A DNA stretch of 64,000 nucleotides from contig CM119376.1 in assembly GCA_051294905.1 (NCBI GenBank), positions 992,001 through 1,056,000 on the forward strand. The letters are read 5' to 3'. The position numbers and the translations under genes are program-made. Origin of the DNA: Botryllus schlosseri. Taxonomy: Eukaryota. Positions 11,901 through 30,420 of this stretch are shown in pieces. The notes beneath the pieces were generated by a model that made no database searches, was not told the origin of the DNA, and saw only the letters and a program-made list of their open reading frames with translations. The stretch's first letter is position 1, and the number at the start of each line of letters is the position of its first letter.

Positions 11901-12537
11901 CATCCATCAACCCATCGTCGGTTACAGTGTAGCTAGTACTGCTTCCAACTTCGGTTCCGTTACCTTGGTCATAATGATTCTCTTCGAGTAATGATGCTAA
12001 AGACAGCTCCTCATTTGCGTTAGACGGGGTTTTGAATTCCGTAGTTACGCCTGGTAATTGTTGGACTTCCTCAATCCATTTCAGCCCTATGATATTAAGT
12101 GGGACTCCTGATCCGGTCACAAATGGAACGGACAGTCCACCAATATCAATCACTACAAAGGAGTCCACTTGGGACGAGCCACCTATTCCAGTCAATTCCA
12201 TGTCTATTGGTTGACGTTTTTCCCAGCTTCGTGGATATTTAGTTATAACGACCTTTTTCATTATCAAATTGGGGATGCTCCCCGTGTCAGCTAGGAATTT
12301 TGTACCAGTTACTGTATCAATTAAATACAACAACTGGCCTCCAAACAATTCCGTAAAATCGGGCTGTAGGGGGTCATCCGGCATATCAAGAAATGTAAAT
12401 AAGGGTAATGATGAGTTATGTACAGTTTTTGTATGTTGAATTATTAAATTGTCTGGGAGCTGATTCACCGGATCAATCAGCACCCCAAGGCGTTTTTTGA
12501 AAGTCGTATACCTTGATTCAGTTCTTCGTCCGTCCAA
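8929..12537 (-). CDS. pol: Pol polyprotein: aspartic protease - insert - RT - RNase H - Tpt1/KptA-like domain; no integrase
   Basis: FLADTGS (12280-12288); RT motifs LDLKKAYFH, MPMGLK, YIDD (10372-10383); Ty3/gypsy-type RNase H TDASD..KEL..TDN..DGLSR (9529-9930); C-terminal ~165 aa with YHCRH, HGHT, LYHMT, HLS motifs. No ATG start; likely expressed by -1 frameshift from gag. Confidence 0.95.
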   Translation of the reverse strand: MDGRRTESRYTTFKKRLGVLIDPVNQLPDNLIIQHTKTVHNSSLPLFTFLDMPDDPLQPDFTELFGGQLLYLIDTVTGTKFLADTGSIPNLIMKKVVITKYPRSWEKRQPIDMELTGIGGSSQVDSFVVIDIGGLSVPFVTGSGVPLNIIGLKWIEEVQQLPGVTTEFKTPSNANEELSLASLLEENHYDQGNGTEVGSSTSYTVTDDGLMDAANQFSVERKMAAGASTGMEITTGASDELKLATNVTQNPWEIIGVETGMPADTVNEDVERGIPAGVKMDLHEKTGPEHSRGCTCPDDNRNPAHSCMATITTDIQSEMSSGENKDLHEKTGPKCLRGCTCPNNLNDSAHSCMTTATVMSTFPKGSIEAAIAGQPDAHPDMSDKESGDFMMHVSPEKGPPAEKESVGVTVGAGTRRDQRHTSKDLALSPPTPKTRSSRISNQPMAGPVTTYVLQKDTHPRVKTELENLCAQSVALAKLPYKPPDLTTPENTIIADDVWKAVYTPFASELEDLRGHLGGPQTMKYKCDIELKDPSTKPFVSGPYNLKGEGQAKALKEAVDNFLDLGVIERGFAEWKLAIFVVPQKMNERQKQEDGWKQAWRVVQNLQPLNAAIKSIEVPPPLVPDVKQLAQGRGVLSLLDLKKAYFHMDVTERSKQYVGIAIKGMHVRWRKMPMGLKTAVALWSANMQECVVKPITEKYQQHMKQVGRTDEENATPMEAYIDDIFLSTKTVEDHLLLLRMVFEQLAKMKLTVSINKCFIGKRRVNLLGATLTGKEIEVQPERIRALRELSPPHNVYELRGWIGALRYISEHIPELSLKLAKFDALTGKVPATQGRVTPVLWTNELLQDFKTAQAALDDAKVLYHLDPNLPIFVETDASDIGFGSIIFQTEKGCKPPFEKVYPIAYYSQKWATPTAKAYDPCTKELKALKDSVEKWQSMLRALPFTIITDNTGVFGLLKRMTDKAKNPSPKPLIQRWLNHLAGFQIKEVVHLSTMQVFTSDGLSRSYWMEMAAGEDDPHVWATIPKKKGVSNRQKRPRPEKIQQMLMYHCRHELCDNSVNGFHPWEDICSIFQKKTGEQMDTDEIQSVMQRCDRAITTEYGMAAAHGHTKGTPPPYCKYEGNEVLYHMTTENNARQIMSAGIERMNRRFIHLSRTPTKKSKRRNVVICMKAANLRNEGLELLQSNVQDVVLCEGPISPTVIQKM
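11479..11697 (-). repeat. In-frame 84-bp direct repeat (period 135 bp) in the protease-RT spacer
   Basis: 11479-11562 and 11614-11697 encode DLHEKTGP..RGCTCP.....AHSCM twice. Confidence 0.9.
12454..12498 (-). promoter_or_regulatory. -1 programmed ribosomal frameshift signal
   Basis: Slippery heptamer A AAA AAC (12492-12498) in the gag frame; pol is in the -1 frame; stem-loop 4-5 nt downstream, UGGGG(U)GCUGAUU / AAUCAGCUCCCA (12454-12487). Confidence 0.85.
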
Positions 12538-15293
12538 TATGGAGCATCATATTGACGCGGCCGATCATGATATTGAGGTTTCGTCCAGGCCACTTGGGTG
12601 TTTCCCCCAGATGGACGTGCAGGTGGTCCATGAGGACCCCATTGATCCCTATCATGCCAGTGGGTTCTGTCTCGGTTTTTTGGCCTGGTATCGTAATAGG
12701 CTTCGCACAAAGCGGTTCTCTGTGTAAACGAGGGTGAACCTTGAGCAGCCAGATATCGATCAAGTCCTTCAATTGTTAGTATGTTATTTCTCGCAAGGAA
12801 CGGTTTCCAGTTTCGTTCTGCAGATTCTTTAACATGAGGGGGTACAGGTCGTGCTCGCCCACGAATTACCCATCCTAATTCCTCATCTCTAGCAAGAACC
12901 TTATCGTTTAGCCACAGTATGAATTTAGCCACGCAATTTCGGGATTGATGTCCCGGTGCCTTACAGTAGTAACAGACGGACAGGGATTGTCCCTGAGTAG
13001 GATTTAGATACAATCCTAGAGGAGCGAAAATATTCGGGTTTCCAAGAAAATTGTATCTCTCACCTTGACTATCCGCAATGTTGCGGGCTTCCTGGCTGCT
13101 GGACGGCGTAATCTGTGAGTTGTCTGCACCCATCCCGGAATCCTGCGTACTCGCCACTCGCGGACTTCGGTTTGAGGTTTCCGGTCCTGGCCTGGCGCGT
13201 GAAGATCTTGTTGTTCTCGTTGGCTGTCCGTCAGGTCTCGATGATGCGTTACGCCCATCCTGTTGGTGTACTGGCCTGGCCCTCGGGCCTTGTCCACGCC
13301 TACCAAATCCATTACCATTCATGATGCGGGTGGGGAATCGATTGTTGCGTGCTTTACGTTGAGGATTCCGACGTTGTAACGGCACCTGGTCTGCATTGGC
13401 AAGTTGACGCGGTGAGGTCCCCCTAGGTGATCCAGGAGGTGTTGCCCCCTCAAAGTTATTCAGTGGTTGTAGGGGCGAGGGTGATTGTACCACCGGCGGT
13501 GGGGTGTCACCAGGTGGAGGAGGAGTGTTGAGCTGACTGTCCTCTCTTCCATGAGTGGGATAACTGTGCACTATTTGTCCTGCAGGTTGAACATTATAAA
13601 TGTGTACTGGCGGCAAGGACGGTTTTGTATCACGTACTTCCTTTGTTTCCTGATACCTGGGGCGCGTCTCTTGCTCGTCCAGAAACTCGGAGTTCCAAAC
13701 AAGTTGTAGTTCCTCCGCAACTTCACGCCATCTTTTATCTTCTTCCCAGCCTCGTAACATCAATCTGAGCGCTTCGGGAAGTCGTTGTCTTAGATTTCGG
13801 AAAAGACGCAATCCATCCGGATTATCATCAATAAAACTATCCATGTCTATTTCTAGTTGTTTCAAAGCGCTATTCAGCAGAGGTAGCGGCTCATCCTCCC
13901 AGCGATAATTCCTGCGGAAATCCCCAATGATTTTTTCATCATTTACCAATCCCTGGGGATTGGATAAGGAAAGAGATCGCATCACCGATTCCCAATCTGC
14001 TTCCCCCGAATTGGTATTAAAAAAATTTCCCAGTTGGGTAGCCTGCTTGTGTCGGCCAGCAGCCCTCAATTTCTTCTGCAGCGCATTAGCCAAAATAACA
14101 TCCACATCCGTATTTCCAGTACCATGGCGTATTCGTCGCATTGAATTCTCCATCCATTTTAGCAATGGCATGTCTCCAGGATCCATCATAAGCTGCAGCA
14201 TTTCTTTTTCTGATTGGATTTTAGTAGATACATTAAGTATTGGGGCTAAAGCACCAGAATTCTTATGTAGCTGTTGCTGCCGTTGTCGCCTAGTCCTTCC
14301 CCCATTCTCTTTTGGAGTGGAGGTAGCGCGAGGTGTATCAGGAGAACGAGAGATATCGGCAGGTTCCTCATCGCTAGAGTCATCCGCAGAATCCTGGGAG
14401 CTGGCACCGCCCCGTAGAGACCTTATATTATCTCTTAATTCCTTGGAAAGATGCTTTAATCGAGTCTGAAAGTCGACCTCACTGTCTTCTGCGGCAGATT
14501 GTTCCTCGCCTGGACTACGAAAGGTTACACGTTGTGAAGCGCCATCCGCTTTTATACGAGATTCTGTCGCCGAATTGCGGCGTTCTGGCCAACCTTGATA
14601 TCCCCTATAGTTACTCAAGGAACTTTTTGCAGGTTTCGCCCTTGTTCCCATCGTTGTTGGGTTACCATCTTTTTGTTTGCGGCGCGCACCACTGCCAATA
14701 TGGAAGCATGATGTCGTCCCCATTCGAGAGTCTGACAACGAGGACGAATCAGAACGTGGTAGCTTAGGATAGACGGCCGTCACAGTATGACAATCCAGAC
14801 CCTTACGGACCGTCATTGTTGGTCCTGGTTGTACGTCATCCGACGGCTGCTCAGCGAGCGGGACGTAAGCCGGAGGATCATGTTCTGGTGCATTTGGAGT
14901 TACTGTCAAAACGGGAGATTGGACGCTCTCTCGCGTAGCCTGAGCATGCGACCTTCCGAGCTCGAACTCTGACGTAAGGATGTCATTCAGCACGTCGGTG
15001 GAGACCTTCCCGCTAACTCTTGTTGTGGCATCACAAACAGCTTTGAGGTCTGCTTGAGCTTTTCGAACCTCTTTCTTTGCCTTTTCTAACCCTTTCATGG
15101 TTTCCGGCAGAGCTGTCTTTACCTCTTTCAATAGCTCTGTTTGTTCAGCCACGTCCTTAGCCAGTTGTCTTTCTTGTCGCCGGACATCTTCATGGCGTTT
15201 TTGTGTAGCTTTAAGCAAGGTAATCCCTTGTTTGAGTTCGTCTGTTGCTTCTGATGGCTTTTTCCTTTTTAATGCTTTCAACATCCTACGCAT
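12477..15293 (-). CDS. gag: Gag-like protein (938 aa)
   Basis: N-terminal coiled coil, PPAY late-domain-type motif (14865-14876), helical central region, Pro- and Arg-rich segments, CCHC knuckle CYYCKAPGHQSRNC (12933-12974); overlaps pol at the frameshift. Confidence 0.88.
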   Translation of the reverse strand: MRRMLKALKRKKPSEATDELKQGITLLKATQKRHEDVRRQERQLAKDVAEQTELLKEVKTALPETMKGLEKAKKEVRKAQADLKAVCDATTRVSGKVSTDVLNDILTSEFELGRSHAQATRESVQSPVLTVTPNAPEHDPPAYVPLAEQPSDDVQPGPTMTVRKGLDCHTVTAVYPKLPRSDSSSLSDSRMGTTSCFHIGSGARRKQKDGNPTTMGTRAKPAKSSLSNYRGYQGWPERRNSATESRIKADGASQRVTFRSPGEEQSAAEDSEVDFQTRLKHLSKELRDNIRSLRGGASSQDSADDSSDEEPADISRSPDTPRATSTPKENGGRTRRQRQQQLHKNSGALAPILNVSTKIQSEKEMLQLMMDPGDMPLLKWMENSMRRIRHGTGNTDVDVILANALQKKLRAAGRHKQATQLGNFFNTNSGEADWESVMRSLSLSNPQGLVNDEKIIGDFRRNYRWEDEPLPLLNSALKQLEIDMDSFIDDNPDGLRLFRNLRQRLPEALRLMLRGWEEDKRWREVAEELQLVWNSEFLDEQETRPRYQETKEVRDTKPSLPPVHIYNVQPAGQIVHSYPTHGREDSQLNTPPPPGDTPPPVVQSPSPLQPLNNFEGATPPGSPRGTSPRQLANADQVPLQRRNPQRKARNNRFPTRIMNGNGFGRRGQGPRARPVHQQDGRNASSRPDGQPTRTTRSSRARPGPETSNRSPRVASTQDSGMGADNSQITPSSSQEARNIADSQGERYNFLGNPNIFAPLGLYLNPTQGQSLSVCYYCKAPGHQSRNCVAKFILWLNDKVLARDEELGWVIRGRARPVPPHVKESAERNWKPFLARNNILTIEGLDRYLAAQGSPSFTQRTALCEAYYDTRPKNRDRTHWHDRDQWGPHGPPARPSGGNTQVAWTKPQYHDRPRQYDAPYWTDEELNQGIRLSKNALGC

Positions 15294-15600: not shown

Positions 15601-15619
15601 ATCCCCGTACTGGCCACCA
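15601..15619 (-). promoter_or_regulatory. Primer-binding site complementary to tRNA-Ile(AAU) 3' end
   Basis: Minus strand TGGTGGCCAGTACGGGGAT is complementary to ...AUCCCCGUACUGGCCACCA, the metazoan tRNA-Ile(AAU) 3' end as I recall it, including the post-transcriptional CCA. Confidence 0.88.
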
Positions 15620-16352
15620 ATTTTGTTTTTAAAGTGCAGCTCCACAACGATTGTTGTGCGAGTAGTCCACACTTGTTCGGGTTACTTCCTAGTAAAGCGT
15701 TGCCTTTCGTTTGCTTTAGTATCCTGACGACGTCTGTAAATGGTGATTGGAGCAACAACAGTGGTAGGATTGTTTCTTCTCAAGTTGACAATGACCCTGG
15801 GGTCCAGAATTTTAATCTACCTTTATCTACTGATAATCTAGAAGCTTAATACAACCAAATACTCCAATCAATTAATCATGTAGACGGAAATGAAGTAACT
15901 CTATGCAAAACTTGGTTAAATTGGCATACACATCATTCATCAATTATAACACAAGGCATGGTTTAACCTATACATCATCATACATGATTAATAAACATTT
16001 TCAATACTCCAAGGTTTGTTTACGCGTATAATTCATGCGACGGCCTGTCCTGCCGTAAATATCAATTACATTTCAAATATTTTGTAACTCCATTCAGCAT
16101 CATAATCCTCAATATTATCGTGATCATAATATTTCAAAGTAACATATCAACATTAAGGACGTCATGTCTTCAGTGCAATCAAAATCACTATGATCCTACT
16201 AATCAGACCGCATGATACTACCCTTAACTAAGATGCCACTTAATACAGGCATTGCTGATTGTTCAAACAGTTTTTAGTGTTCATTATTTAGTTAATTTAA
16301 TGGTATTGTTGTTTAAGATTTTATAAGATTTTATATTGTTTTTCAATAATTA

Positions 16353-16476
16353 TTTATTTAGCCTATAATAAGGGTTCGCACCGTAAACTTCGGATTTTGT
16401 TTCCCTAAAACTAGGGCTTCGATCCCTAGGGTCCTGCTTAAAAATAAGGGCGTAGCAGTGTATAACGCCTTATATA
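16353..16476 (-). promoter_or_regulatory. Candidate genomic-RNA promoter / R region: TATA, hairpin, poly(A) signal
   Basis: TATATAAG (16469-16476), CTAGGG/CCCTAG stem (16411-16429), AATAAA (16353-16358), in that order upstream of the PBS. AT-rich context lowers specificity. Confidence 0.4.
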
Positions 16477-16757: not shown

Positions 16758-17207
16758 TCATTGAACTAGGACATCTATAGTATCCTCAGGGTAAAAGGGT
16801 TCCGTAGATTCGGCTTGTTCTTTCACCCATTCATCCGTTATCAAATTTTCCATAGGATGCATTCGAGCCATATAGTTGAACCACAAAAGTTTAGCCCTTT
16901 CATAATTTCCATAGGCCATTTCTTTTATCATTTTGTGGTTTTCTAATATTCCTGGGTAGTCAATAACAAAGGGCTTTTCATCGGAAAGGGTTTCGTTAAC
17001 CCGTTTGCAAAAACATTTCAATCCAAGTTTGATATATTTGGGTGGAGTCTTTGACCACTCGTACCATCTATGAGAGGGGAGTATTCTCGCTTCATATCGC
17101 TCTTTGAATAGCCAAAAATAAAATATCAAATCTTGTTCCGCTACATTAGATCCAACTATTCTGGTGACATCAACATCACCATTATCATTTATCACCGCGT
17201 TATTCAT
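16758..17207 (-). CDS. Unknown protein, family A subtype 2 (149 aa)
   Basis: Shares F..F...YE, RW..W..T.P, Y..AK.LW....RMHP..E.W with 19120-19515. Confidence 0.8.
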   Translation of the reverse strand: MNNAVINDNGDVDVTRIVGSNVAEQDLIFYFWLFKERYEARILPSHRWYEWSKTPPKYIKLGLKCFCKRVNETLSDEKPFVIDYPGILENHKMIKEMAYGNYERAKLLWFNYMARMHPMENLITDEWVKEQAESTEPFYPEDTIDVLVQ

Positions 17208-17370
17208 ACTGAATTTTCTGAAAGAAATTAATCATCCAGGTAAGGGTCTATTTAGTCATGCAAACGGAAATGAATTAACTCAATGTAATACTTAATCAAA
17301 TTGGCATACATGTCATACATAATTAATAGACATTTAATTTAGCAAACAATAAAATGTACAATTTATGCAT

Positions 17371-17829
17371 TCATTGTTCATAATTATCACATCCATTACA
17401 TTTCATTTTATGTATAAGTATAGCAGCTCTCACATCAGAGGGAAAAGTATCATAAAAGAGTTTATCCGTGGTGTAAATACAAAATCCAGTTCTATCAGAA
17501 CAAGGCATTCTTTCCAACACCCATCCTTCGGGTATCACATCTGAGGCAGGATGCAATCCAACACAGAAGACGAACCAACAAAATTTAGCATGTTCATAAT
17601 TTTCAAACAATATCATGCGGGCGATGGATAAATGCTTTTTGTATAGCGCATCAAACAGTTTGTCGGATACTCTCAGATTGCAAATCCTCAAGTAAGGTGT
17701 CATAAATATCTCCAGTTCATCCCGTGTTGTTGCAGCCCACTTGCCAAAGTCTTTGTGTTCATATTTCTTTTCAAAGGAATCAAAGAAAACGTCAAGTTCA
17801 TGCTTTGCTCTAGCAATTTTATCCCCCAT
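17371..17829 (-). CDS. Unknown protein, family A subtype 1 (152 aa)
   Basis: Shares KLFD.LY..H..IAR, W F...LHPA...PE...ER.P with 19521-19976. Confidence 0.8.
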   Translation of the reverse strand: MGDKIARAKHELDVFFDSFEKKYEHKDFGKWAATTRDELEIFMTPYLRICNLRVSDKLFDALYKKHLSIARMILFENYEHAKFCWFVFCVGLHPASDVIPEGWVLERMPCSDRTGFCIYTTDKLFYDTFPSDVRAAILIHKMKCNGCDNYEQ

Positions 17830-17966: not shown

Positions 17967-18461
17967 TTACTGTGCATACATATCAGTCCATTTTCGTGCC
18001 GTCTTCTGATAACTATCATAATCATCCCGATACAGTCTGGCGCTTTCAACATCCATTGGATCTTCTGGGTTAGGGGAAGCCAGCAATGACGAAATTGAGA
18101 CCAACACCTTGCCCATCGTTAAAGCAGGTGACCATTCATTTGCAAGAATGTCAATACATATGGTACCCTTACGGCTTATATTCGGATGAAAAATTTTGGT
18201 CTCAAATTTGATCTTCGGAGGCTTGAATGGATATTCCGTTGGAAATTCGATTCTAAGGAGAAATGTCCCTTTTTCATATGGTGTTTTTGAGGGTCCGCGC
18301 AAAAGTGCTTGCCAAATATAGATATCTGACTCGTCCATCGGCCCTGCTTGCAAAATGACAGGATTTGTTTGAATTTCTTGATCGATCTTTCGCCGTTCAA
18401 CATGTAACCTATGTCTTGCCATTCGGTGTAGATTAATATTATCCAACAAGACTTGATACAC
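17967..18461 (-). CDS. UBE2D: Intronless E2 ubiquitin-conjugating enzyme, UBE2D/Ubc4-5-like
   Basis: GP..TPYE.G.F, YPFKPPKI.F.TKIFHPNI, catalytic Cys in ICIDIL, WSPALT, SLLASPNPEDP. Real start probably MARHRL. Confidence 0.93.
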   Translation of the reverse strand: MYQVLLDNINLHRMARHRLHVERRKIDQEIQTNPVILQAGPMDESDIYIWQALLRGPSKTPYEKGTFLLRIEFPTEYPFKPPKIKFETKIFHPNISRKGTICIDILANEWSPALTMGKVLVSISSLLASPNPEDPMDVESARLYRDDYDSYQKTARKWTDMYAQ

Positions 18462-18483
18462 ACAGAAAGAAAAAAAAATATTA

Positions 18484-19008
18484 TTAATTCAGTCGTTTAT
18501 CCATAGTATACATGGCCCGTGAAAAACCGGCAATAGTTTTGCTAGTAATGTTCCAATCTTCATCAACATTAGCTATAGCCAACACATATCGTAGAAATAC
18601 ATACAAGTAGTATGCAGGGCTCTCTCCAAAGTTTTCTTCCACAATTTGCTCCAGTACTCTTTTGGCGCATTCCAATTGTTCCGCCACCTCATGGTCCCGG
18701 TATAGCCAGACAAGAAAATCTTTCAATACATACTCCATGTCATTGGCTGTCAACTTCGGAAAGTTTTCTATTCTTTCTTTTATTCGTTCATGTACAACTC
18801 CCATCTTTAGCCAAGCAACTCTGCTGTCAGGTATCGTAGGGTATAGACACGGTCTGAACTTGTTCCGATTCAATTCCTTCTTCTGTGGGTCTTTAGGCAC
18901 ATACTCATACTTTTCATGATTAACTTCCAACATGCCACAGTCAAAGATCAAATAAATTATTAATGTCTTAAAATTCTTACACAAAAAAACCCAAACATTA
19001 TTAAACAT
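18484..19008 (-). CDS. Unknown helical protein (149-174 aa)
   Basis: Open frame packed between neighbours in the same orientation; no recognised motif. Confidence 0.65.
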   Translation of the reverse strand: MFNNVWVFLCKNFKTLIIYLIFDCGMLEVNHEKYEYVPKDPQKKELNRNKFRPCLYPTIPDSRVAWLKMGVVHERIKERIENFPKLTANDMEYVLKDFLVWLYRDHEVAEQLECAKRVLEQIVEENFGESPAYYLYVFLRYVLAIANVDEDWNITSKTIAGFSRAMYTMDKRLN

Positions 19009-19119
19009 TCAACGAATCTTAATCAGCAAACCAACTTAATTACACACATAAAAGTTTTTAATTCTAGTTGTTATATTAGATATAGTGGAAAATCTGATGC
19101 AGTATATGTATCATTTCAG

Positions 19120-19515
19120 TTAATCATCTTTCAAACATCCTTTTATCCATTGTTCTGAAAAGCTCTCCTTCAGGGGATGCATACGAACAATATGTTGGTA
19201 CCAAAGAAATTTGGCTTCCTTATAGTCTCCCAGTGTAATAATTGCAATCCTATTATGTTCCTTGATAGCAGCATGATACCCCAGAGCCTTGCCTTGCGGA
19301 GATAATGCACTCCCATAAACTTTGTCAACATACAGCGTCAGCATTCCAACAATGTCATTGGGTCTTGTCATAGCCCATCTTTGCCATCTGTCGGAAATTT
19401 CCACATCTTCTTCATAATATTTACAGAACATGTCAAAATAATATTTCAAGTCGCACACTGCGGATTCATATTCCGTTTGCAATAATTCCTGGTTACTTAT
19501 GGTTCTTCGAGACAT
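19120..19515 (-). CDS. Unknown protein, family A subtype 2 (131 aa)
   Basis: Paralog of 16758-17207. Confidence 0.8.
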   Translation of the reverse strand: MSRRTISNQELLQTEYESAVCDLKYYFDMFCKYYEEDVEISDRWQRWAMTRPNDIVGMLTLYVDKVYGSALSPQGKALGYHAAIKEHNRIAIITLGDYKEAKFLWYQHIVRMHPLKESFSEQWIKGCLKDD

Positions 19516-19520
19516 TCCTC

Positions 19521-19976
19521 TTAATCGCGTAATATAACGATTTTCGAAAAAGCGTCTTCTAAAATTGGAACAGCAACAGTTTCAAATTCTCGAGCATTCA
19601 GAAGTAATGTTGCAGAATCTTTTAATTCCATTTGTGGTAATCTTTCATCCAGAAATTCTTCTGGTAGATATTTATGAGCCGGATGTAATTTTAGAACAAG
19701 TCCAAACCATGTATATTGGGCCAGATCAAAATCTTTTGTAACAAAAACGCGAGCAATATCACTATGTGCGTCATAAAGTTTATCAAAAAGCTTTTCTGTC
19801 ACATTCGCAAAACAATGATGAAGGTATTTCTTTATTAATTGTTTGAATTTTTCCTTTGGGGTATTTTTCCATATCTCAAAATTTTGATGATGGTATTCCT
19901 GTTCAAATTCATCATAGTATTCATTAATTTGTTTCTTGGCTAGCGTAATTTCCCAATTCTCTAATACTCTAGTCAT
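19521..19976 (-). CDS. Unknown protein, family A subtype 1 (151 aa)
   Basis: Paralog of 17371-17829. Confidence 0.8.
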   Translation of the reverse strand: MTRVLENWEITLAKKQINEYYDEFEQEYHHQNFEIWKNTPKEKFKQLIKKYLHHCFANVTEKLFDKLYDAHSDIARVFVTKDFDLAQYTWFGLVLKLHPAHKYLPEEFLDERLPQMELKDSATLLLNAREFETVAVPILEDAFSKIVILRD

Positions 19977-20122
19977 CTTAATACAGAATAAAATACTTTA
20001 AAATCGTATGTTCAATTTTACGAATAATTGATTCATACACGCAAAAGTAACTAGTAACATTATGCATCATACATATGTATCAAGAACATTCATGCCACAA
20101 AATAATAGTCCTGCCTGCTCCA

Positions 20123-21817
20123 TCAAGCTCTATACACCTTTATCTTTTCAAGTATTGTTTCACCACAAATGTTGCATCTTTCGGTATTTGTTGCACATTT
20201 TTCACAACTACATAAATGTCCACAAGGTATGAAAGTAATTTCACTTTTGTTTCTCTTGCAATTTTTGCAAAGCACACTCTCTTGTATTTCTTTCAAACTT
20301 TGCGCGATTTCATCCACCGACATTGTTTCTGCAACTGCTGCTTCTTTCGTTTCTTTGTTGTTGTTCACTTCGTGATTATTTTCAGATATGCTATCGCCTT
20401 GTTGTTGTGTTGTTTTCGTTGGACTGGCGGTAATTGTATTTACTGTCTCCAGTAAGTCCTGAATTATATCACCAGTAGAGAAATGATCATTAGTCTGTCT
20501 ATTTATGGTTCCTTCTATTTGATCTCTCGTAAATCCCATGTCTTCCAGTTGCATCCTGTTTATGTATTGTCTAGATAACCTTGGTCGATTATGGTTCCTT
20601 CGTATCTCCTCTCGTGGTGCATCAAGACATATTGCATTCCTTATCGATGGTCGATTGAGATTGGGATGTTCATCTCTTAGTCGTAAAACGAAATCAATAC
20701 CTTTCATTTGCAAAACATATTCACAACCAGGAAACCACTTTGCATGCTCTGTCCACGGCTCATCATTGTAGTTCCAATTTTGTAATCCTCCGTTGCAGTA
20801 AAAGCATTTCGCCCTGTCCGAATCCCCTAGATAATACATACCCGCTTTAGCCAATTGTTCCGTTGTTGCGAGGATCCTGGGCCATTTTTCATTAAACGAA
20901 GATATTCTTTGCTGTAACGTTGTCATATGCAAATTTATCGGGTAAAGGCAAGGGAATCTTTCCACCAACTGGAGTTGTTCTTCTGGCGATGGATCCGGAG
21001 GTTCTCCCCTATTAGTAGTTAACCTTTCAATTTTTATTTTAAGTTCATTATCTGCCTGATTTCTCTCGGAGTCTGTCAAGGGCATATTTCCTGCATACTC
21101 GTTATTTGCCATTCTGCATTTTGTAAAATGTCTTTTATGTTGTTCAAGGACATTATCAGTGGGTGCCCAATTTCTCAGTACTCCTGAACATGAAAAACAT
21201 TGCGCTCTGTCAAGATTTCCCAGGTAAAAAAATCCCTGTTTTGCCAATTCCCCTACCAAGTATGGAGTAGGATAGGAAGGCCATTTGTCAAAGGTTCTTC
21301 TTCTCTCTAGTTCACTTCTCAAATTTGCTGATCGCAATGAAGTCTCATGTTCTTGGTCACAAATGTTCGCAAACACGGTTTGCGGTAAGGGACACTTTTC
21401 CTCTTTGATAGTCGGTCTTTGCACATTCCGATTAGTTTGCTGACTTCTTGTAGTAAGGTTAAGGTGGCACCTCATTTGTTCAAAAAGGAGCCTCCCTGAG
21501 CAGTTTGAAATAGGCAAGTTATAACCATGTTGTATGGTCACCATGTCACAAGTAGATTTATGCCACTTGTCATCAAAAGGATCGTCTCCAGTGACCCATT
21601 TTTCCACAGATACTCCACAGCAGTAACATCTTACTCTATCTTGAAATCCTGTCCAATAGAAACCCGCAGCGGCTAGATAGCTCGGTATCACAGGAGTTTC
21701 TTTCGAAAAATGTTTGAACGTTGCAAGTCTGTAATGCTCAACCCGGTGATCTCCAGGTGGAATATAAACGCAATTATGTCCAGGAGGATCACGATCTCTT
21801 TTCATCAGAATGCCCAT
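20123..21817 (-). CDS. iap: Intronless inhibitor of apoptosis: 3 BIR + UBA-like + C-terminal RING
   Basis: Three BIRs (R..TF...LA..GFY.G..DR..C..C....W...D....H....C), LEDMGF UBA-like motif, RING CKNC...PCGH...CEKC...CNIC ending KVYRA. Confidence 0.95.
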   Translation of the reverse strand: MGILMKRDRDPPGHNCVYIPPGDHRVEHYRLATFKHFSKETPVIPSYLAAAGFYWTGFQDRVRCYCCGVSVEKWVTGDDPFDDKWHKSTCDMVTIQHGYNLPISNCSGRLLFEQMRCHLNLTTRSQQTNRNVQRPTIKEEKCPLPQTVFANICDQEHETSLRSANLRSELERRRTFDKWPSYPTPYLVGELAKQGFFYLGNLDRAQCFSCSGVLRNWAPTDNVLEQHKRHFTKCRMANNEYAGNMPLTDSERNQADNELKIKIERLTTNRGEPPDPSPEEQLQLVERFPCLYPINLHMTTLQQRISSFNEKWPRILATTEQLAKAGMYYLGDSDRAKCFYCNGGLQNWNYNDEPWTEHAKWFPGCEYVLQMKGIDFVLRLRDEHPNLNRPSIRNAICLDAPREEIRRNHNRPRLSRQYINRMQLEDMGFTRDQIEGTINRQTNDHFSTGDIIQDLLETVNTITASPTKTTQQQGDSISENNHEVNNNKETKEAAVAETMSVDEIAQSLKEIQESVLCKNCKRNKSEITFIPCGHLCSCEKCATNTERCNICGETILEKIKVYRA

Positions 21818-22057: not shown

Positions 22058-22750
22058 TTAATGGAGATGTATGTCCAAAATATAGGAATTTTCCAGATAT
22101 TGATTCATTGACTGGGTTTCCTTATCTACTTTCTTCGAGTATATGTATATATATGCATCCATAACGGAGGTATCAGAACTCAGCAACATATAACCTTTTA
22201 CTCCTAGGTTGGTTTGGCTGTACCAAGTCCATTTGCAATTCGCATCTGTAACATAAGCCAGACTATTTGCACATACTAACAATCTTGTATGGCCCATTAC
22301 TACTCCTCGTATCACTTCATATATTACTCGTCTCATACATTGGGGAGGTATTCTTCGGAAAACTCCCATCAAGGTTTCCGTAATTATAGTCCATGTATCG
22401 TCATCGGGTCGTATCGTCTGTTTACTCCATACTATGAGTCGTTGTCTTGAGGAATCTTTCACAATGGCAGAATCTTGGGAGTCGTCAGAGTCCGTATTAC
22501 TAGAAATTTCGTCCTCCGACGTTTCTCCATGGGGTTTTCTGTCGCCACATGGAAGTTGTCTTTTGTACCAATTATGTTCTTGTTCAAAAAATTTTTTTAA
22601 CATATCCATCAGCAACTTCAGACATCCAGTATTTTTTCGCACGTCGATTTTATCTAGTTGATTCATCAATTCACAAAAAATAGCAGTGTTATGATCCTGT
22701 ACTTCAGATAGATACATTTTATCCCTGTGAATATAACAATAATGTGCCAT
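22058..22750 (-). CDS. Unknown protein, family B (230 aa)
   Basis: RRVIYEVIRGVVM and W..Q.NLGVKGY shared with 25742-26365. Confidence 0.78.
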   Translation of the reverse strand: MAHYCYIHRDKMYLSEVQDHNTAIFCELMNQLDKIDVRKNTGCLKLLMDMLKKFFEQEHNWYKRQLPCGDRKPHGETSEDEISSNTDSDDSQDSAIVKDSSRQRLIVWSKQTIRPDDDTWTIITETLMGVFRRIPPQCMRRVIYEVIRGVVMGHTRLLVCANSLAYVTDANCKWTWYSQTNLGVKGYMLLSSDTSVMDAYIYIYSKKVDKETQSMNQYLENSYILDIHLH

Positions 22751-22970: not shown

Positions 22971-23918
22971 TCAATGTTCCAATGTCCTAAAGTTAGGATC
23001 AAGAGCAATTATCTCTAAAAATAGTTGAAACCTTTCCTCCAAGGCCACCCTTCTTTTCCAGAGCCACTCCTGTAAGTAATGAGGAATAAGTGATCTTGAT
23101 ACCCCATTCAGCCTTCTAATAGCAGCTTTAAAAAAATTCCAAGACACCTCGATCAATTGTGTATTTATGCCTTCTGTGGTGACAAATTCGCGATCATGAT
23201 TAACTATTGAATGTTTATAATTCATTCCCAGGCTTTCCAACTTGCGGTAACTGGCAAATGAATCAGTCCATATAGTGGATCCCTCTTTTACGTGTTTCAT
23301 AATTATTTCTGATAATACAGAGGTTTTTCTCCCTTCTTCAGGTACCAATTCTGCAAACATTTCTCGCGTTTTCATATCTATTCCAGCCAAAACCCAGCGT
23401 TGGCGTATTATTCTTCCACGATTAAATTTTCTTTTGGCCACAAACGTCTCATCAATTTGAATTACATGTGATTTACCTTGTGATATTCCCCCTATTAGTG
23501 TACCTCTTCTTTCCATCTCCCCAGAGCATATCTTACGAAGTTTCTTGGTCCAATTCACCATTGTTCTCTTGCTGACGTGTGCTTCAAAAGCTATTTGTCG
23601 TTGAGATACATCTATGGTCCAAAGATAAATCATCATTACAAGTTGGGTGAGTCTTATTTTACTTCCCTCAAATAGCGATCTTTTCCTTATGGACGTGGTA
23701 GTTCGGCACTTTGAAACCGGACACCTCCATCTATATCCATCCATAGTTCTTTTGCATTTTTCTTCATTCATCTGTTGTCCACAATTAAAACATGTTGCCT
23801 TTTGAACAAGGAGTTGCCGTGATCGCAGAAACTTTATACATTTTCGTTCACTTGATATTATACCACATCGAGCAAGATTGAATAGATTTTTTCTTTTTCT
23901 GGATTCTTTAGTCTTCAT
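22971..23918 (-). CDS. IS1595/ISXO2/Merlin-family DDE transposase, copy 2 (315 aa)
   Basis: Zn ribbon CFNC..WRCPVSKC, HTH region, IQIDET, WTDSFASY, NH, TQLIEVSW, YLQEWLWKR; catalytic D, D, E present. Confidence 0.92.
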   Translation of the reverse strand: MKTKESRKRKNLFNLARCGIISSERKCIKFLRSRQLLVQKATCFNCGQQMNEEKCKRTMDGYRWRCPVSKCRTTTSIRKRSLFEGSKIRLTQLVMMIYLWTIDVSQRQIAFEAHVSKRTMVNWTKKLRKICSGEMERRGTLIGGISQGKSHVIQIDETFVAKRKFNRGRIIRQRWVLAGIDMKTREMFAELVPEEGRKTSVLSEIIMKHVKEGSTIWTDSFASYRKLESLGMNYKHSIVNHDREFVTTEGINTQLIEVSWNFFKAAIRRLNGVSRSLIPHYLQEWLWKRRVALEERFQLFLEIIALDPNFRTLEH

Positions 23919-23986: not shown

Positions 23987-24541
23987 TCATGCAGGCACTT
24001 TCAAAGTCATAAATTGACAATCGGCTTCTTTTAATGAAATTCCCTGCGTCTTTGCCCATGCGTATATCTGAACTTCCGGAAAGATTATCCACATTATGAA
24101 ATCTCTTTCAGAATCTCCCTTTTTTAGAAATTCCCTCATTTCCGGATTTACTTTTTTTAAAATTGTTACCCAATTTATGCAGATTTCTGCAAAAGCCATC
24201 TGTATAGGTTTTTCAGGGTAAATGCTTCCTGTATAAGTTTCTTCCCACTCATTTTCAACCAGATGTTTCCCAGGCCAATGATTATTACCCGTAGTAAAAC
24301 CATACTTTTGCTTCCAATATTGCAGCCGTGGATTTAATTCGTCGTACATTATGTCACATAAGTGATCCGTTAATGTATATGTTGTCAACAGAAACTTCAG
24401 CGACTTTAATCCTTTATCTATTAGTGTTTCTTTTTGGGGTATCCATATCAAATGTTGTTTTTCCGGATCATCACAACGCAATCCCAAGCACATTTTGATA
24501 CTTTTAGTAATATTTTTACCGTATTCTAATATATTAAACAT
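23987..24541 (-). CDS. Unknown protein, family C (184 aa)
   Basis: NPRLQYWKQ and ERDFIMWIIFPE shared with 27744-28616. Confidence 0.75.
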   Translation of the reverse strand: MFNILEYGKNITKSIKMCLGLRCDDPEKQHLIWIPQKETLIDKGLKSLKFLLTTYTLTDHLCDIMYDELNPRLQYWKQKYGFTTGNNHWPGKHLVENEWEETYTGSIYPEKPIQMAFAEICINWVTILKKVNPEMREFLKKGDSERDFIMWIIFPEVQIYAWAKTQGISLKEADCQFMTLKVPA

Positions 24542-24605
24542 CTTATTATTAATTGAACAGGAAAATACTGAATCAATACCTCAAGATTCCACATTTTCTT
24601 TATAT

Positions 24606-25655
24606 TTACATTAGTTCAATAGTGACTAGCCACACAATAACGGCAAATGTACCTTTTGAATGTATAGTTACATAATGGGATAAACTTTTCATCTCATCAT
24701 AATATAATCTCGATTGTTTGCGCACATGGGGTTTTTTGGTAAACGTTCCATTATTATTTCTTTTCAATTTTAAAACTTCCAGCCTCGGTAATTTTTTTAG
24801 TAGATCATCACTAAGAAATTGGACGTGATTATAACTAAGATCAATAGTATGCAGATATTTGAACGATATATTGGAAGAAAGAGAGAAAAACTTCAAGTTG
24901 TTACTATACAATGTTAATCTCTCTAAATTACATAGTGATTTAAGCACTGTCATTTCAAATGCAATTAGTCCATTTTCGTCCATGTGTAATGTTTCTAATT
25001 TTCTCAATCCTCTGAAGGCCCCATCTTCTATAACTTTTATGGCGTTCCTTGATAAATCCAGTATCCTGAGACGGCGCAAGTGAACAAATGTTCCATTCTT
25101 CAATCTTTTTATCTCATTATTGTCCAGATATAGCTTTTGCAGGTTCTCCAGACTGGCAAATATCGATTCTTCTATCTCTGCCAGCAAATTACTGCTTAAG
25201 TACAAACTTTCTAGTTGATGTAATCCTGAAAAACTTTCCTTTTCAATTCGTGTGATGTAGTTTCGCCTCAAGTTTATCTCCCTGAGTTTTTCATTTTTGC
25301 AGAAGGCTCCTCTTGATATTGTTTGGATTTTATTCCAACCACAATACAACACCTCTACGTCTTTATATTTTTCCAATTGTTCTTTGGTTATTTCCCGTAG
25401 ACAGCTGTCGTTGATGAATATCTTTACTGTGTTCCGACAAGATTTTGCCAGGTATATCTTGTCAGGATCCGGAATCCTTGTATAACTCGAATGGTCGCAC
25501 CAAAGTACCAAATTGCTTCCTTGCATGCATTCCGGGTATAACATGGTTCGTCTTTCATTAATCGTACATTTCTTTTGTTCTATTGTTTCCGGATAAATAG
25601 CATAACACATGCCCAGCCATAATACTAGTAGTTCCACTCGATTCATTTTACTCAT
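24606..25655 (-). CDS. Secreted or anchored leucine-rich-repeat protein (349 aa)
   Basis: Signal peptide, Cys-capped N-terminus, 9-10 24-aa LxxLxLxxNxIxxIxxxxF repeats, hydrophobic C-terminus; intronless. Confidence 0.9.
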   Translation of the reverse strand: MSKMNRVELLVLWLGMCYAIYPETIEQKKCTINERRTMLYPECMQGSNLVLWCDHSSYTRIPDPDKIYLAKSCRNTVKIFINDSCLREITKEQLEKYKDVEVLYCGWNKIQTISRGAFCKNEKLREINLRRNYITRIEKESFSGLHQLESLYLSSNLLAEIEESIFASLENLQKLYLDNNEIKRLKNGTFVHLRRLRILDLSRNAIKVIEDGAFRGLRKLETLHMDENGLIAFEMTVLKSLCNLERLTLYSNNLKFFSLSSNISFKYLHTIDLSYNHVQFLSDDLLKKLPRLEVLKLKRNNNGTFTKKPHVRKQSRLYYDEMKSLSHYVTIHSKGTFAVIVWLVTIELM

Positions 25656-25741
25656 GAATTAGATAACCCACTTTGTTACTCTATACCTTCGAAAAAGTGT
25701 CCTTTGTAAGTCAAAATCTTATTTACATTCGTTGTCATTAC

Positions 25742-26365
25742 TCATGATTGTTCCGGTATTATAGAGTCAATGTTCACACTTTCCCCTTCGTAGGGGTAAG
25801 GATGTATTTCTATACGTCTTATCCTTTTTGTTCGCCAATGTATTGAACTTGAATAGCCTTTTATGCCCAAATTATTCTGACAATTCCATTGTTCCATATG
25901 TGGCGGATCTTTACAAATTTCTCTCTCCTGGTACACGTCCTTTGTTATATTAGTGTTTGTAAGTTTCATCACCAGTCCTCTAATTAATTCATACAACATG
26001 ACTCTTCTTCCCAAAGAGGTGTATTCCTTTGCTCTTATTTCAAATATCTCTTCTACCACATGATTGAATTTATTAAAATTTTCTTCGGTTATTTCCTCAT
26101 CTAGTGCTGCCTCTTCTAGGCCATTGTCTGTTTGTTTAACCCAATCAACTCGGTCCGTAAGCAATTCCCATATTCTTTCCTTTAACTGGTATCTCTCATA
26201 CTCGCTGTCATATTCTTTAAGATTCAATAGGTCCAACTCGTCATATACATCGTACAAAAGACACCAATTTGATGGATCGTAACCTTCAATATAATCAAAA
26301 TCTAACATTCTTTTTTCAAACAAAATAGCAATTTCGCACAATTTACCATTTTCAGGATATAACAA
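25742..26365 (-). CDS. Unknown protein, family B (207 aa)
   Basis: RRVMLYELIRGLVM and W..Q.NLGIKGY shared with 22058-22750. Start uncertain. Confidence 0.78.
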   Translation of the reverse strand: MLYPENGKLCEIAILFEKRMLDFDYIEGYDPSNWCLLYDVYDELDLLNLKEYDSEYERYQLKERIWELLTDRVDWVKQTDNGLEEAALDEEITEENFNKFNHVVEEIFEIRAKEYTSLGRRVMLYELIRGLVMKLTNTNITKDVYQEREICKDPPHMEQWNCQNNLGIKGYSSSIHWRTKRIRRIEIHPYPYEGESVNIDSIIPEQS

Positions 26366-27743
26366 TTCTCAAGACTTATATAATTACTTTTACTTTTCAC
26401 TCATAACTTATCAAGTATACTCCATTTATCAATTCATTAATCACCCAATACTTATTAGGCAATAAATCTCTCCCCCCCACAAGGGCAATATAATCATTTT
26501 GTAATTTTTTATTTTCTGGTTTTTATTTATATAATTTTTTTCTCATTAAGATTTTATCTCGTATATAGTTTTTATCATTCGGTTTTGGTAATAATTTTAT
26601 CAATTTTTATGATCTATAAACATAATTAGACATTTTATTTTTTTGAAGATTTTTTTAGTGGGGAAAGTTACACAACATGTCAATTGAAACATTATTAAAA
26701 AGTAATATTACTCATCATCCCTGCCTTCCCTTCCATGAAAAATATTTAGACACAAGTATCTCTGAATGACAAACTACTCAATTCAAGGGTTATTTATACA
26801 GAGTTGTTGATAACAAGTTATTACACAACTGTGTCTCATAGAGACCATCAGAGGAAGGGTGCCATGAGACAGAGATGTGAGTAATTTTCAAAATGTTATT
26901 TTACAAAACTATTACATAATCAAATATTGGATAAAATACTAGAGGTTGAGTCCATTATTACGCATGTTATGTACAGTGCAATAAAGAATTTTCATAATCT
27001 TAAAAATATTATAATAATCAGCAATAACTTAAATAGCAGCAAATTGGTATGAGGCTCATACAAGGAGATTTGGCAGAGCGACAATTTTGGGTGAAACGGA
27101 AAAAATTACGCTCACGTCAGTATTTAAAAAATATAATTCGATTAGCATAACATTTAAGTATAAGCACGAGGCGATTTGTGATAGTATAGGTGGTCTGGGG
27201 CCATTACAGACTAAATTTCAACACGAAAATTGCAGCCAAAAATACATACATAACATTTAATATTATGGGAGACAAACACCGTACAATTCTTCATAATTTA
27301 CAATAACAAGTTCCTCTCGAATTTAAAAAATTTTTGCAATAAAGGTAGGTCGATCTTGCATTCAAGTACTCAAGTTCTCATAGTCCCCGGGATGTCATTC
27401 TAGGGGAGGTGATAGCGGGAACAATCCCAGCGATTGATCAATGTATCGGAATCTTTTAATAAAAAGGGAAACTGTATTAATAACTCTGAGTAAATATATA
27501 TCGTAAAATACAGGTATATAGTTTCCACTTTTGCTAATCTCAAGTTTCGCTATACCCGGCTTCTATACTTTTTCCGTTAAGTTTGACCTTTGGTAGTGGT
27601 GCCGAATTGATAAGTTGTCCTAAACCACCACCGGTCAGCCCTAAATAATTTAGTTATCATGGCTTGTCTAATAGGCTAGCCCTAAAAGTCCAGATCAATC
27701 AAGACAACTTCTAGATCAGACTAATAGTAGCTTTATTTTCAAA

Positions 27744-28616
27744 TCAGCCCATATTACCACCAGAGACAGCATGGGGTCCGTCTACACTGGGTCTCCGTAA
27801 AACTATCATTTGGGTCGGAGCCTCTAGTTTGTTTGGAAACCTACTGTCTCTACTGGTTGAAGACTCAGTATCAAACAACGATGTAGTTTCCGAATTGGTA
27901 TTTTTAGCTAATTGTTTGTCTCCCTCTTTTTTTAACGAGTTTTCAAAGATTGATTCCGACACTTGGTCAACCGGTAGAACAAAAACGCCTCCCACATAAC
28001 CAAACGTGCTCGTGGACCCGTATGTAAATCTCCATTGTTCTAGATTTCCCCCAAATAGGAATTCAAATTCTGCGTCCATCCGACATCTCGTAAAACAAAA
28101 TGTTCGCATGTTTTTTGCCCCCCGATATTGTTGCAACAGGAGAGCTATGGCGGTTATTATCGCTTCTGGATATAACACATAAAGCAATATATGTCCTTGA
28201 TCTCTTTCGGTGTTTTGAGCTAGTCCTCTGTGCATGCTACAAGCCTCTTTCAAATAGTTATGGCATAATGTCATAAGTTCCAAAATCTGTCCAGTATTCT
28301 TGAAATACGGTTTTACGTGCCTCATAAGATAACATTGTTTACATTCACCGACCCCTACCGGGTGAAAAGGCTTTCCTATTTTTATCCAGTCCTCTTTGGT
28401 GTACATACATTGTTGCCAATATTGTACCCTTGGATTGTCCCGCTCACAAGTGCCGAACAAGAGGCTCATCAAACGATCCCGAACCGGCGCAGTTTTTATG
28501 GTTTCCATTACCATCTGCTGCCTTTGCGTAAGATCGAACTGCATTGCCCACTCGTAGACAACCTTGTGATCCGTATTAGGGTCGCACAATAGCCCGTAGC
28601 ACATTTCTTTCTTCAA
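27744..28616 (-). CDS. Unknown protein, family C (290 aa)
   Basis: NPRVQYWQQ and ERDQGHILLYVLYPE shared with 23987-24541; Ser/Thr-rich tail. Confidence 0.78.
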   Translation of the reverse strand: MKKEMCYGLLCDPNTDHKVVYEWAMQFDLTQRQQMVMETIKTAPVRDRLMSLLFGTCERDNPRVQYWQQCMYTKEDWIKIGKPFHPVGVGECKQCYLMRHVKPYFKNTGQILELMTLCHNYLKEACSMHRGLAQNTERDQGHILLYVLYPEAIITAIALLLQQYRGAKNMRTFCFTRCRMDAEFEFLFGGNLEQWRFTYGSTSTFGYVGGVFVLPVDQVSESIFENSLKKEGDKQLAKNTNSETTSLFDTESSTSRDSRFPNKLEAPTQMIVLRRPSVDGPHAVSGGNMG

Positions 28617-28789
28617 TTAGTTCACTATTTATAACTCTAGAATACAGAATGTTTCCTCCTTTATTCATACAACCCTCAGTAAATTGGTTCATATTGTAAA
28701 TCAATATGAAACAGAGAAAATACATTGGTTAAATTTTTAATCATACAACCTTACCAGTCATGTGAGTCAAACAATATGCTAGAATTTAT

Positions 28790-29302
28790 CTAACCATCAT
28801 CATGATATGATGTTGTAGGTTGAATTTGAGCGGTAGGTGGCTGTTGCCGAAACATGATACTGCCAAAAGATGTATACGTCCCATCTGACATCACATTGCT
28901 ATTATGCGGCAAGTCGTGGCTCGTTGAAGGTGGCGTCAGTAAGGGCGTCAAGAAAGGACTACTTGTTGATGTTGAGGAGCTGGTCTCTATTCTTCTATTC
29001 TGTTTGTTTGGGGCAGATTTTCTTTGTGAATATGGTTTTACTTTTGCTACCTCTCGATTTTTGACGTGTTTTCTACGATAGTCATTTCGCCATGGCCACT
29101 CTTTAACTTTTTCATTGTTTGCTCCCATCCCTTCGAAGAAGGACTCCGCATAATGTCTAGTTTGATTCTTAATGTCCTCGAAAAAATCATTCCATCTTTG
29201 TAATCTCTCTGTTTTTTTCACGCCTCGAAGTTCCTCATACCATAGTTCGATATTTTCAATAGATAGCTCCCATAATTGTTCTTTAGTTATTGAGGCAGAC
29301 AT
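28790..29302 (-). CDS. Unknown protein (170 aa), helical N-half, basic and Ser/Pro-rich C-half
   Basis: ATG-started ORF co-oriented with the array; no recognised domain. Confidence 0.65.
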   Translation of the reverse strand: MSASITKEQLWELSIENIELWYEELRGVKKTERLQRWNDFFEDIKNQTRHYAESFFEGMGANNEKVKEWPWRNDYRRKHVKNREVAKVKPYSQRKSAPNKQNRRIETSSSTSTSSPFLTPLLTPPSTSHDLPHNSNVMSDGTYTSFGSIMFRQQPPTAQIQPTTSYHDDG

Positions 29303-29819
29303 TCTTTAATTTACGACACCGTGTTATTTTTACACCTTAAAAATAATAGTGTTTCTTTAAGCCGAGATTATTGTAAGATATCGTTAATGATATATATAAA
29401 CATTGAATCGTGCTAACTCTTTATTAATCTTGTTTGGGGTTAATTATTCCTTTACCGGGTGAAGAAAAGTGTTATCTTTGGCCACTTGTCAGCCTAACAA
29501 TTCTTGATTTTCTTAACTCAGGGCCAGTCCGAAATTGCCAATATCAAGAATAGATTGCACTGATTGTGAACTTGCAAAGTCAAGCAAAAATTATATTTGT
29601 TTGGAGGTGATGACTAAAATATCTATTCCGACGTATTGGCAAATCCATCAGCCAGTCACATAATGGTAAATTTTTATACACTACCATAAAGCAGAATAAT
29701 TTGCACCAGCTTCATCAAAAACAAAATTTTCACAAGCTAAACACAATATTTTGCCACACGTTTCCTTGTTTTTAATACTGCTGCCCATTTTATGACCATG
29801 GAAAAACGGCCAATTTATT

Positions 29820-30155
29820 CAGACTGAGCCTAACTATACTCGCGATTTCGGAACAAGATGTCGTTGAACATGTGTGACCTTGCGTTTGCGTTTGCGGTAA
29901 TATCTCTGACTATGAAACCTAGGTACGGAAAGATTGACGCATGTTGGCTTTTGTTATTAATATGGCCATGCGCCACATAGCCTGATCCGCGTAAACTCAG
30001 AATAGCGATATACGGTAAGCTCGCAACAATGCCAAGTTATAATATCATTGGTCTATGAACTTCAAAAGCTTTTCGCGCTTCGCGCGGTAGTGGCATGCAC
30101 AGTATTTCGTCAATCGAATGTGACCTTCGGGCTGGAAAAGATTGGCCAGCCTTGA
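29820..30155 (-). mobile_element. Diverged fragment of the host hAT MITE family (cf. 5772-6110) inside the element
   Basis: Reverse-complement similarity to 5772-6110, e.g. CGCGCTTCGCGCGG, TTCGTCAATCGAATGTG, TTGGCCAGCC, ATGAAACCTAGG. Confidence 0.8.
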
Positions 30156-30420
30156 CTAATTCAAACTTTTATTTTGTATCACATACCATCCTAATTGTTC
30201 TCTCTCTCTTAAAATCTGCTAAATAACCTGTCATTATTCCATGGTTACACAAGAATTCTCTTTTTCAAACGACAACACAGTCGTCCACAGTATTTAATTG
30301 TTTCACTATGAGACACAGAAAACATAACATATCTTGTAACAGTCGCAACATAATTAATGTACATTCACGATTTTGCTGATCACATTAATTTGTACATTTT
30401 GATCACACAGTTTTCCAATT

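Follow-up and report, generated by a model that had tools for sequence, protein, structure and literature searches.

Locus, borders and gene content of the element

We analyzed a stretch of 64,000 nucleotides from Botryllus schlosseri (contig CM119376.1, positions 992,001 to 1,056,000 of the forward strand; G000:C6:992001-1056000 in our coordinates), hereafter the window, together with the 495-Mb genome to which it belongs. It holds a mobile element of 39,979 bp (window 8656-48634) that has a tRNA primer site and a reverse transcriptase (RT), is bounded by the inverted ends of a Merlin/IS1595-type DNA transposon, and carries a UBE2D-like ubiquitin-conjugating enzyme (E2) and an inhibitor of apoptosis protein (IAP) among its cargo. 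The borders were set by searching for the ends in other copies: four of these align with the window from 8652-8656, three of them past 47,500 and the fourth as far as its sequence was read. The left (5′) terminal inverted repeat (48612-48634, minus strand), recognized by comparing ends across copies, starts with GG, and its GG-ended right (3′) counterpart (8656-8678, minus strand), at which other copies stop, differs from it at 6 of 23 positions. GG is found at all ends read (28 left and 31 right), and the inverted repeat is about 23 bp long and imperfect. Identical 8-bp target-site duplications flank the element (left copy 48635-48642, right copy 8648-8655). For 14 of the 28 left ends, the fetched loci included the matching right end, and each of these paired copies shows the duplication (12 with an exact 8 bp, one with 9 bp and one with 7 matches in 8). 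We found no terminal direct repeat (long terminal repeat, LTR) in the element, no internal copy of its ends and no Rfam match within it. The sequence-only reading of this locus had assigned its genes to a retroelement; the element is real, but with GG-ended inverted repeats and without an integrase it is not an LTR retroelement.

All of the genes described here lie on the minus strand, in the order Tnp1, an 838-aa envelope-like (env-like) open reading frame (ORF), a 1132-aa membrane glycoprotein-like (gp) ORF, a 10-kb gap, 15 cargo ORFs, the primer-binding site (PBS), gag and pol, with the cargo including a second transposase, a leucine-rich repeat (LRR) protein, the IAP and the E2. The 1151-aa pol (8929-12384) combines an aspartic-protease motif, RT, RNase H and a C-terminal Tpt1/KptA-like domain (Pfam; E 2e-6 against Tpt1 structures). 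No integrase was detected by Pfam in any element ORF scanned, the Tpt1-like domain standing in its place in pol, and none of the 20 element ORFs of at least 100 aa has a Pfam match to a tyrosine recombinase. The core transposase Tnp1 (279 aa, 47396-48235; Pfam E 6e-10) and the second transposase Tnp2 (315 aa, 22971-23918; Pfam E 2.5e-17; dN/dS 0.10) are both of the Merlin/IS1595 type and both have the D-D-E residues. Tnp2 is optional across the sister families and is held in the same place where present; that it is a separately inserted Merlin was ruled out by this kept position and by the lack of element-type inverted repeats around it. The gag-like ORF (938 aa, 12477-15293) was called from its position and a CCHC knuckle (E 5e-4, just under the Pfam cut-off). 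The env-like ORF (44750-47266) has a basic cleavage motif, a hydrophobic stretch, long helices and a membrane anchor and is predicted to act as a class I fusion protein; the N-terminal part of the adjacent gp ORF (41264-44662) is related to it.

Probable signatures of reverse transcription, and purifying selection

The 18-nt primer-binding site (15602-15619, minus strand) is complementary to the mature host tRNA-Ile(AAT), CCA included, with 15619-15602 pairing with the final 18 nt of the tRNA; the CCA is not encoded in the two host tRNA-Ile(AAT) genes inspected. The site is present in all of the copies read, which were the best 30 of 40 scored, and is exact in 27 of them. When 336 five-base windows were ranked by variability, the top three fell on the 3′ edge of the primer site, where hypervariable bases follow directly (with 11 alleles and an entropy of 2.89, the median being 0.56), and the interior of the site showed near-zero variability in the same scan. 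The variation just after nucleotide 18 occurs even among copies that are 95-99% alike. Because this edge is where the RT meets the methylated A58 of the tRNA primer, its hypervariability is likely a scar of copying by reverse transcription. Sister families use other primer sites, one of which was matched to the host tRNA-Thr(AGT); no tRNA match was made for the site of sister family A.

Immediately upstream of the primer site lies a non-coding leader (15620-16059, minus strand) that is 73-79% conserved across sister families and contains a motif of about 55 nt, which is repeated in the sisters; it has no Rfam match, and its folding is not above expectation (z -0.45). A motif scan further places a TATA-like box (16476) and an AATAAA (16358) within 16353-16476 on the minus strand, a candidate single promoter and poly(A) signal. 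Comparison of the window with three to four copies shows purifying selection on gag (dN/dS 0.24), pol (0.13) and env (0.22); the Tnp1 ratio was excluded as unusable, since three of the comparisons had matched Tnp2.

Sister families, gene order and outside relatives

Sister copies, with pol 60-84% identical to that of the window, come in two gene orders: those on C12, C7, C11, C13 and C8 have the window order (Tnp1-env-gp-cargo-PBS-gag-pol), and those on C3, C1 (two copies) and C16 read cargo-PBS-gag-pol-Tnp1-env-gp, with a pol-to-Tnp1 gap of about 130 bp in the C3 copy. Closed into a ring, both give gag-pol-transposase-env, which is the retroviral order with the transposase at the position of the integrase. 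GG ends with an 8-bp duplication were recovered in seven of the 10 sister copies tried (six exact, one 7/8), in a search that tolerated 10-12 mismatches in 24, so that any one end pair is less certain. Copies of the two gene orders have homologous sequence at their right ends. The C13 sister copy is free of any cargo, which delimits the core as Tnp1, env, gp, gag and pol.

RT and/or RNase H joined to a Tpt1 domain, without an integrase, also occur in six outside proteins (P0001, P0002, P0093, P0094, P0097 and P0106). In quick trees the element RT and these relatives form their own long-branch clade, and the element RT does not group with the caulimovirids, which were represented by two rows with long branches. 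Of 53 loci, two marine metagenome contigs are close to the element, each of only 4.7 kb, and among viral contigs 0 of 64 candidate relatives were confirmed. P0094 has an endonuclease/exonuclease/phosphatase match after its Tpt1-like domain, which may be a different partner for integration or stem from a gene call that fused two genes. In the Tpt1-like domain of the window pol (8929-9460) both histidine motifs are kept, and an alanine replaces the arginine that solved Tpt1 proteins have before the second glycine-histidine; its chemistry may thus differ from theirs.

A probable reverse-transcribing element integrated by a DNA transposase

We posit that this is a reverse-transcribing element with a circular DNA intermediate that is integrated by a Merlin-type DNA transposase, a reading that we consider probable. 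The ends, duplications, gene content, primer site, selection and the two cut points of one gene ring are directly observed; the circle, the terminally redundant RNA, the use of the transposase in place of an integrase and the enveloped particles are what these features suggest. In this mechanism, tRNA-Ile would prime reverse transcription at the internal site 15602-15619, and the promoter upstream of the primer site, with the poly(A) signal, would yield a terminally redundant RNA from the circle. Caulimoviruses make terminally redundant RNA from circular DNA. Reverse transcription would then regenerate a DNA circle, to be opened where its ends are joined and inserted by the Merlin-type transposase. 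The cargo likely serves to keep the host cell from dying and to dampen immune signaling, with the IAP presumably acting mainly via its BIR domains and the E2 working with whichever RING ligases are present, not necessarily the element IAP. Whether all this amounts to an order-level new, enveloped, reverse-transcribing animal virus, with a genome of about 40 kb, a pararetrovirus-like circle, integration by a bacterial-type IS1595/Merlin transposase, a pol capped by a Tpt1-like domain for end processing, and a captured E2 and IAP that steer ubiquitin and death signaling of the host, the former being the first E2 of a retroelement, we judge to be evenly balanced.

Several observations weigh against this mechanism. 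No copy with joined ends was seen in the 59 flanks read (31 at right ends and 28 at left ends). The gag call is drawn from a single knuckle and the position of the ORF, in which no capsid domain was detected; the env-like ORF gave an atlas lead of 0.89-0.90 with low recognition, and its structural model is of low confidence (pLDDT 38). As the right ends are homologous, the two gene orders could also have arisen from one gene block that moved without a circle, and the trees of pol and Tnp1 are only partly congruent. The genomic context of the outside relatives is confined to contigs of at most 4.7 kb, which lend no support to the use of a Merlin transposase there. Finally, transcription into a 40-kb RNA would have to pass through many cargo ORFs, each a single gene.

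A giant cut-and-paste Merlin transposon that moves as DNA only, with the retroelement module and the host genes as passengers, would account for the ends, duplications and transposases, which satisfy the definition of a Merlin, and it would sit well with the lack of a junction copy and with the fact that neither an LTR nor a polypurine tract was identified in the element. We nevertheless regard it as quite improbable, since purifying selection on gag, pol and the env-like genes is unexpected for passengers, and since the primer site is intact, has been switched between host tRNAs and varies just past its nucleotide 18. In another reading the element is reverse-transcribed from an end-to-end transcript of the integrated copy: the RT would copy about 33 kb to the 5′ end of the RNA and jump to its 3′ end, and transcription would not depend on an excised circle. 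Both the internal primer site and the scar would follow without excision, and the inverted ends might bring the ends of the RNA together. Against it, neither a direct terminal repeat nor an internal copy of the ends was found, and the conserved 440-nt leader sits just upstream of the primer site, as do the motifs that resemble a promoter and a poly(A) signal; we consider this route, too, to be unlikely.

The E2 gene of the element

The E2 (151 aa, 17967-18422, minus strand) is a single open frame that matches Pfam UQ_con (E 4e-48), has UBE2D2/D3 as its best solved relatives and displays H79-P80-N81 and the catalytic C89, in agreement with the sequence-only reading, which had called it an intronless UBE2D-like E2 with an intact HPN motif and active-site cysteine. 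Relative to UBE2D (UbcH5) it shares the HPN, the cysteine and the usual residues of the loops that bind E3 ligases; it differs as a divergent paralogue, about 50-56% identical to canonical UBE2D and with glutamine at the backside Ser22 position. It is probably active and able to use host ligases. We found 26 copies, 89-100% identical, of which 24 are free of internal stops. The IAP lies 1.3-1.8 kb from the E2 in 24 of the 26, and the other two have lost it by internal deletion, so that the earlier assignment of both genes to a mobile element holds. The E2 is under purifying selection (dN/dS 0.08 from 34 synonymous and 10 non-synonymous differences; pN/pS 0.12 over 25 copies). One sister family has both genes, with the E2 74% and the IAP 64% identical; nine further sister copies had neither in the stretches read, in a comparison of ORFs that broken remnants could escape. 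The E2 and the IAP are conserved but optional, probably host-derived cargo of the element.

The host has a large array of divergent, single-exon UBE2D-like paralogues (C1:34.12-34.49 Mb, C148, C15:8.36 Mb and C5:2.64 Mb), which are 53-79% identical to the element E2 and have only coding sequence in common with the element. In a tree with 5 of the 23 distinct element sequences, the E2 falls together with this array (99/99). It stands apart from the canonical UBE2D-like genes of the host and is not a canonical UBE2D orthologue. Since the element clade is nested inside the diversity of the array, transfer from host to element is the likelier direction, with a root that is not firm. The canonical UBE2D-like genes of the host are single-exon as well, in a survey that may have overlooked a spliced UBE2D made of small exons. 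The lack of introns, which had been taken as a sign of capture via mRNA, is hence no argument for intron loss in the E2, because both its closest host relatives and the UBE2D-like housekeeping genes are intronless. The sequence-only reading was to be refuted by intronless host orthologs together with a lack of linkage to the element in other copies; the first half of this applies to the E2, and the linkage is seen in 24 of 26 copies. The host genes at L194, L195 and L197-L201, which are UBE2D-, UBE2A-, UBE2N-, UBE2E- and UBE2G-like in sequence, are single-exon, and the UBE2L3-like gene at L130 is spliced.

Divergent UBE2D-like E2s occur further in Polinton-like elements (L186-L190, e.g., G000:C2:36466401-36476400 and C11:4519501-4529500), beside tRNA-Ala and tRNA-Pro genes; these elements have a 425-aa ORF with a weak double-jelly-roll match and, in L189, an integrase. 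Their E2s group with another branch of the host C1 array. A single E2 capture shared by them and the element was ruled out (AU p 3.5e-6, on a quick tree and for a group that was defined once a previous tree was known).

The IAP gene and its relation to the E2

The IAP (564 aa, 20123-21817, minus strand) is likewise a single open frame, in which Pfam finds three BIRs (E 6e-58) and a RING of the C3HC4 type (E 2e-9), and is under purifying selection (dN/dS 0.14 from 82 synonymous and 43 non-synonymous differences). The 3xBIR-UBA-RING architecture proposed earlier for a gene 1.7 kb from the E2 is confirmed, the UBA by alignment with cIAP1 only: Pfam missed it, and residues ~415-457 align with the helical part that follows BIR3 in cIAP1 (3T6P). 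The zinc-ligand spacing of BIR1 is atypical (C-x2-C-x18-H-x3-C), and a host gene has the same spacing. On C12 there is a spliced counterpart of eight exons or more, whose aligned parts are 40-82% identical, and three spliced relatives are on C5. For the IAP, the existence of a spliced host counterpart fits capture via mRNA with loss of introns, and this half of the earlier proposal stands. Compared with cIAP1, cIAP2 and XIAP, the element IAP is alike in domain order, zinc ligands and the tail aromatic residue, and differs in having no CARD and in the degenerate E2-binding face of its RING. RING-less 3xBIR IAPs of 385-404 aa, 48% identical to the element IAP, are found as inverted pairs at L203-L205, L219 and many other places, and Polinton-like elements at L209 and L210 (G000:C2:31.12 Mb and C11:4.69 Mb) carry a RING-less 3xBIR IAP with a hydrophobic tail end.

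That the E2 and the IAP RING form a dedicated, co-adapted ubiquitination pair, the "matched pair" of the sequence-only reading, seems to us rather doubtful. The two genes do co-occur in each of the two families that carry them, both are conserved by purifying selection, and the RING retains every zinc ligand and the tail aromatic residue. By alignment, however, the element RING has N519, K521, G552 and Y562 at the positions of cIAP1 V573, M575, R606 and F616, and the sister family has glutamine, arginine, aspartate and tyrosine there. In all seven element copies read, the first three places are taken by polar residues or by glycine or aspartate, and the RING of the closest host gene (C12) is altered as well. 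The contact of cIAP1 with its E2 is described as centering on Val573 and Met575, with Arg606 as the linchpin, R606A being defective, and Phe616 as needed in trans (passages of PMC6349121). The 1,700-bp gap between E2 and IAP is occupied by three other ORFs (174, 131 and 151 aa) that are linked as tightly as the two genes themselves, the Polinton-like elements have related E2s and lack an IAP within the 10 kb read, and IAPs without a RING occur in other repeats. A predicted complex of the RING dimer with the E2 scored 0.02, which is no answer and counts neither way. Some RINGs function without an arginine at the linchpin position, which leaves room for a working pair. Judging from the residues, the RING probably has weak or non-canonical ligase activity, or serves chiefly for dimerization.

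Comparison with known systems and significance

Retroelements of the LTR type (Metaviridae) share with the element the gag (knuckle and position), protease, RT, RNase H and a tRNA primer site, and differ in having LTRs and a retroviral-type integrase. Caulimoviridae and DIRS elements have an integrase-free Gag-protease-RT-RNase H module and a circular DNA stage; caulimoviruses are tRNA-primed and have no integration enzyme, and DIRS-type retroelements integrate via a tyrosine recombinase. The element resembles both in its integrase-free module, with the circle here suggested by the two cut points, and differs in its transposase and in an RT that falls outside the caulimovirids. The marks of Merlin/IS1595 elements, as given in the main text of PMC8101967, in which the term "reverse transcriptase" is absent, are GG-ended inverted repeats, an 8-9-bp duplication and a DDE_Tnp_IS1595 domain with D-D-E. 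The element has all three, but differs in its 40 kb, two transposases, gag, pol, primer site and env-like genes; movement as DNA only with a single transposase gene does not describe it, if the RNA stage suggested by its sequence is real.

The planarian Gypsy-like Burro elements, which the sequence-only reading had brought up, are similar in exceeding 30 kb, in RT-based replication, in env homology and in a cargo with BIR and ubiquitin-related domains. They differ in having LTRs, an integrase and the BIR inside one polyprotein, where the element has none of these and carries its cargo as single genes, and no E2 is named for them in the passages on Burro (PMC6431247); the parallel thus extends to the theme of the cargo and not to the carrier. 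Teratorn, a fusion of piggyBac and an alloherpesvirus treated in the same passages (PMC6431247), likewise has virus-like genes mobilized by a captured DDE transposase, inverted ends and host cargo, but is a DNA virus with a DNA polymerase, where the element has an RT and a primer site. For the cargo, the closest precedents are pI215L/UBCv1 from African swine fever virus, which is similarly virus-borne, acts with host ligases and is, according to the abstract of PMC7771050, the sole viral E2 known, and the IAPs described as accessory genes of the virus-like adintoviruses (passages of PMC8502044); both belong to DNA viruses. No E2 in a retroelement was found in the literature searched, and full-text searches aimed at Merlin with RT, Tpt1 with RT, or an integrase-less retroelement with terminal inverted repeats turned up no description of such an element, within a scope that stops short of Repbase and subscription journals.

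The split between elements with RNA and DNA intermediates, and the orders within the RNA-intermediate class, rest on the integration enzyme, and tRNA-primed reverse transcription with insertion by a transposase acting on terminal inverted repeats would, if true, be a new combination. The copies are recent and near-identical, which makes the mechanism testable, and in size the element comes close to the upper bound of RNA genomes. That a retroelement has an E2 under selection, and that Polinton-like elements made separate captures of E2s and IAPs, points to the control of ubiquitin and cell death as a bottleneck that the virus-like elements of this host have in common. A working E2-IAP pair is doubtful; the carrier is the striking part of the find.

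Further features of the element and its surroundings

The remaining cargo, all on the minus strand, comprises two orphan helical ORFs (149 and 152 aa, 16758-17829), paralogues of the 131- and 151-aa ORFs among the three that lie between E2 and IAP (18484-19976), an orphan ORF of 230 aa called by ORF and Pfam scan (22058-22750), and, in 23987-30918, ORFs of 184, 188, 286, 170 and 165 aa with the secreted-type LRR protein (24606-25655). The orphan 152-aa family gave a good model (pLDDT 80), for which neither viral nor solved folds yielded a match (the best Z being 5.4). A region of about 10 kb that lacks long ORFs (30919-41263) is common to other copies at 86-96% identity. A 77-nt repeat stands downstream of two cargo ORFs (15872-15948 and 17252-17328) and is perhaps a shared 3′ signal. 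Near the right end there is a 26-bp palindrome (8808-8833), which on a circle would lie upstream of Tnp1 and env and whose core resembles an AP-1/Maf site. G000:C5:10285870-10299819 shows a local segmental duplication, in which a right end, 5 kb of pol and the flank occur twice at a distance of 14 kb. The segments 5761-6490, 29723-30164, 31331-32064 and 49978-51573 comprise non-autonomous repeats of the host, inside and beside the element, and a pogo-like DDE_1 transposase ORF outside its left end.

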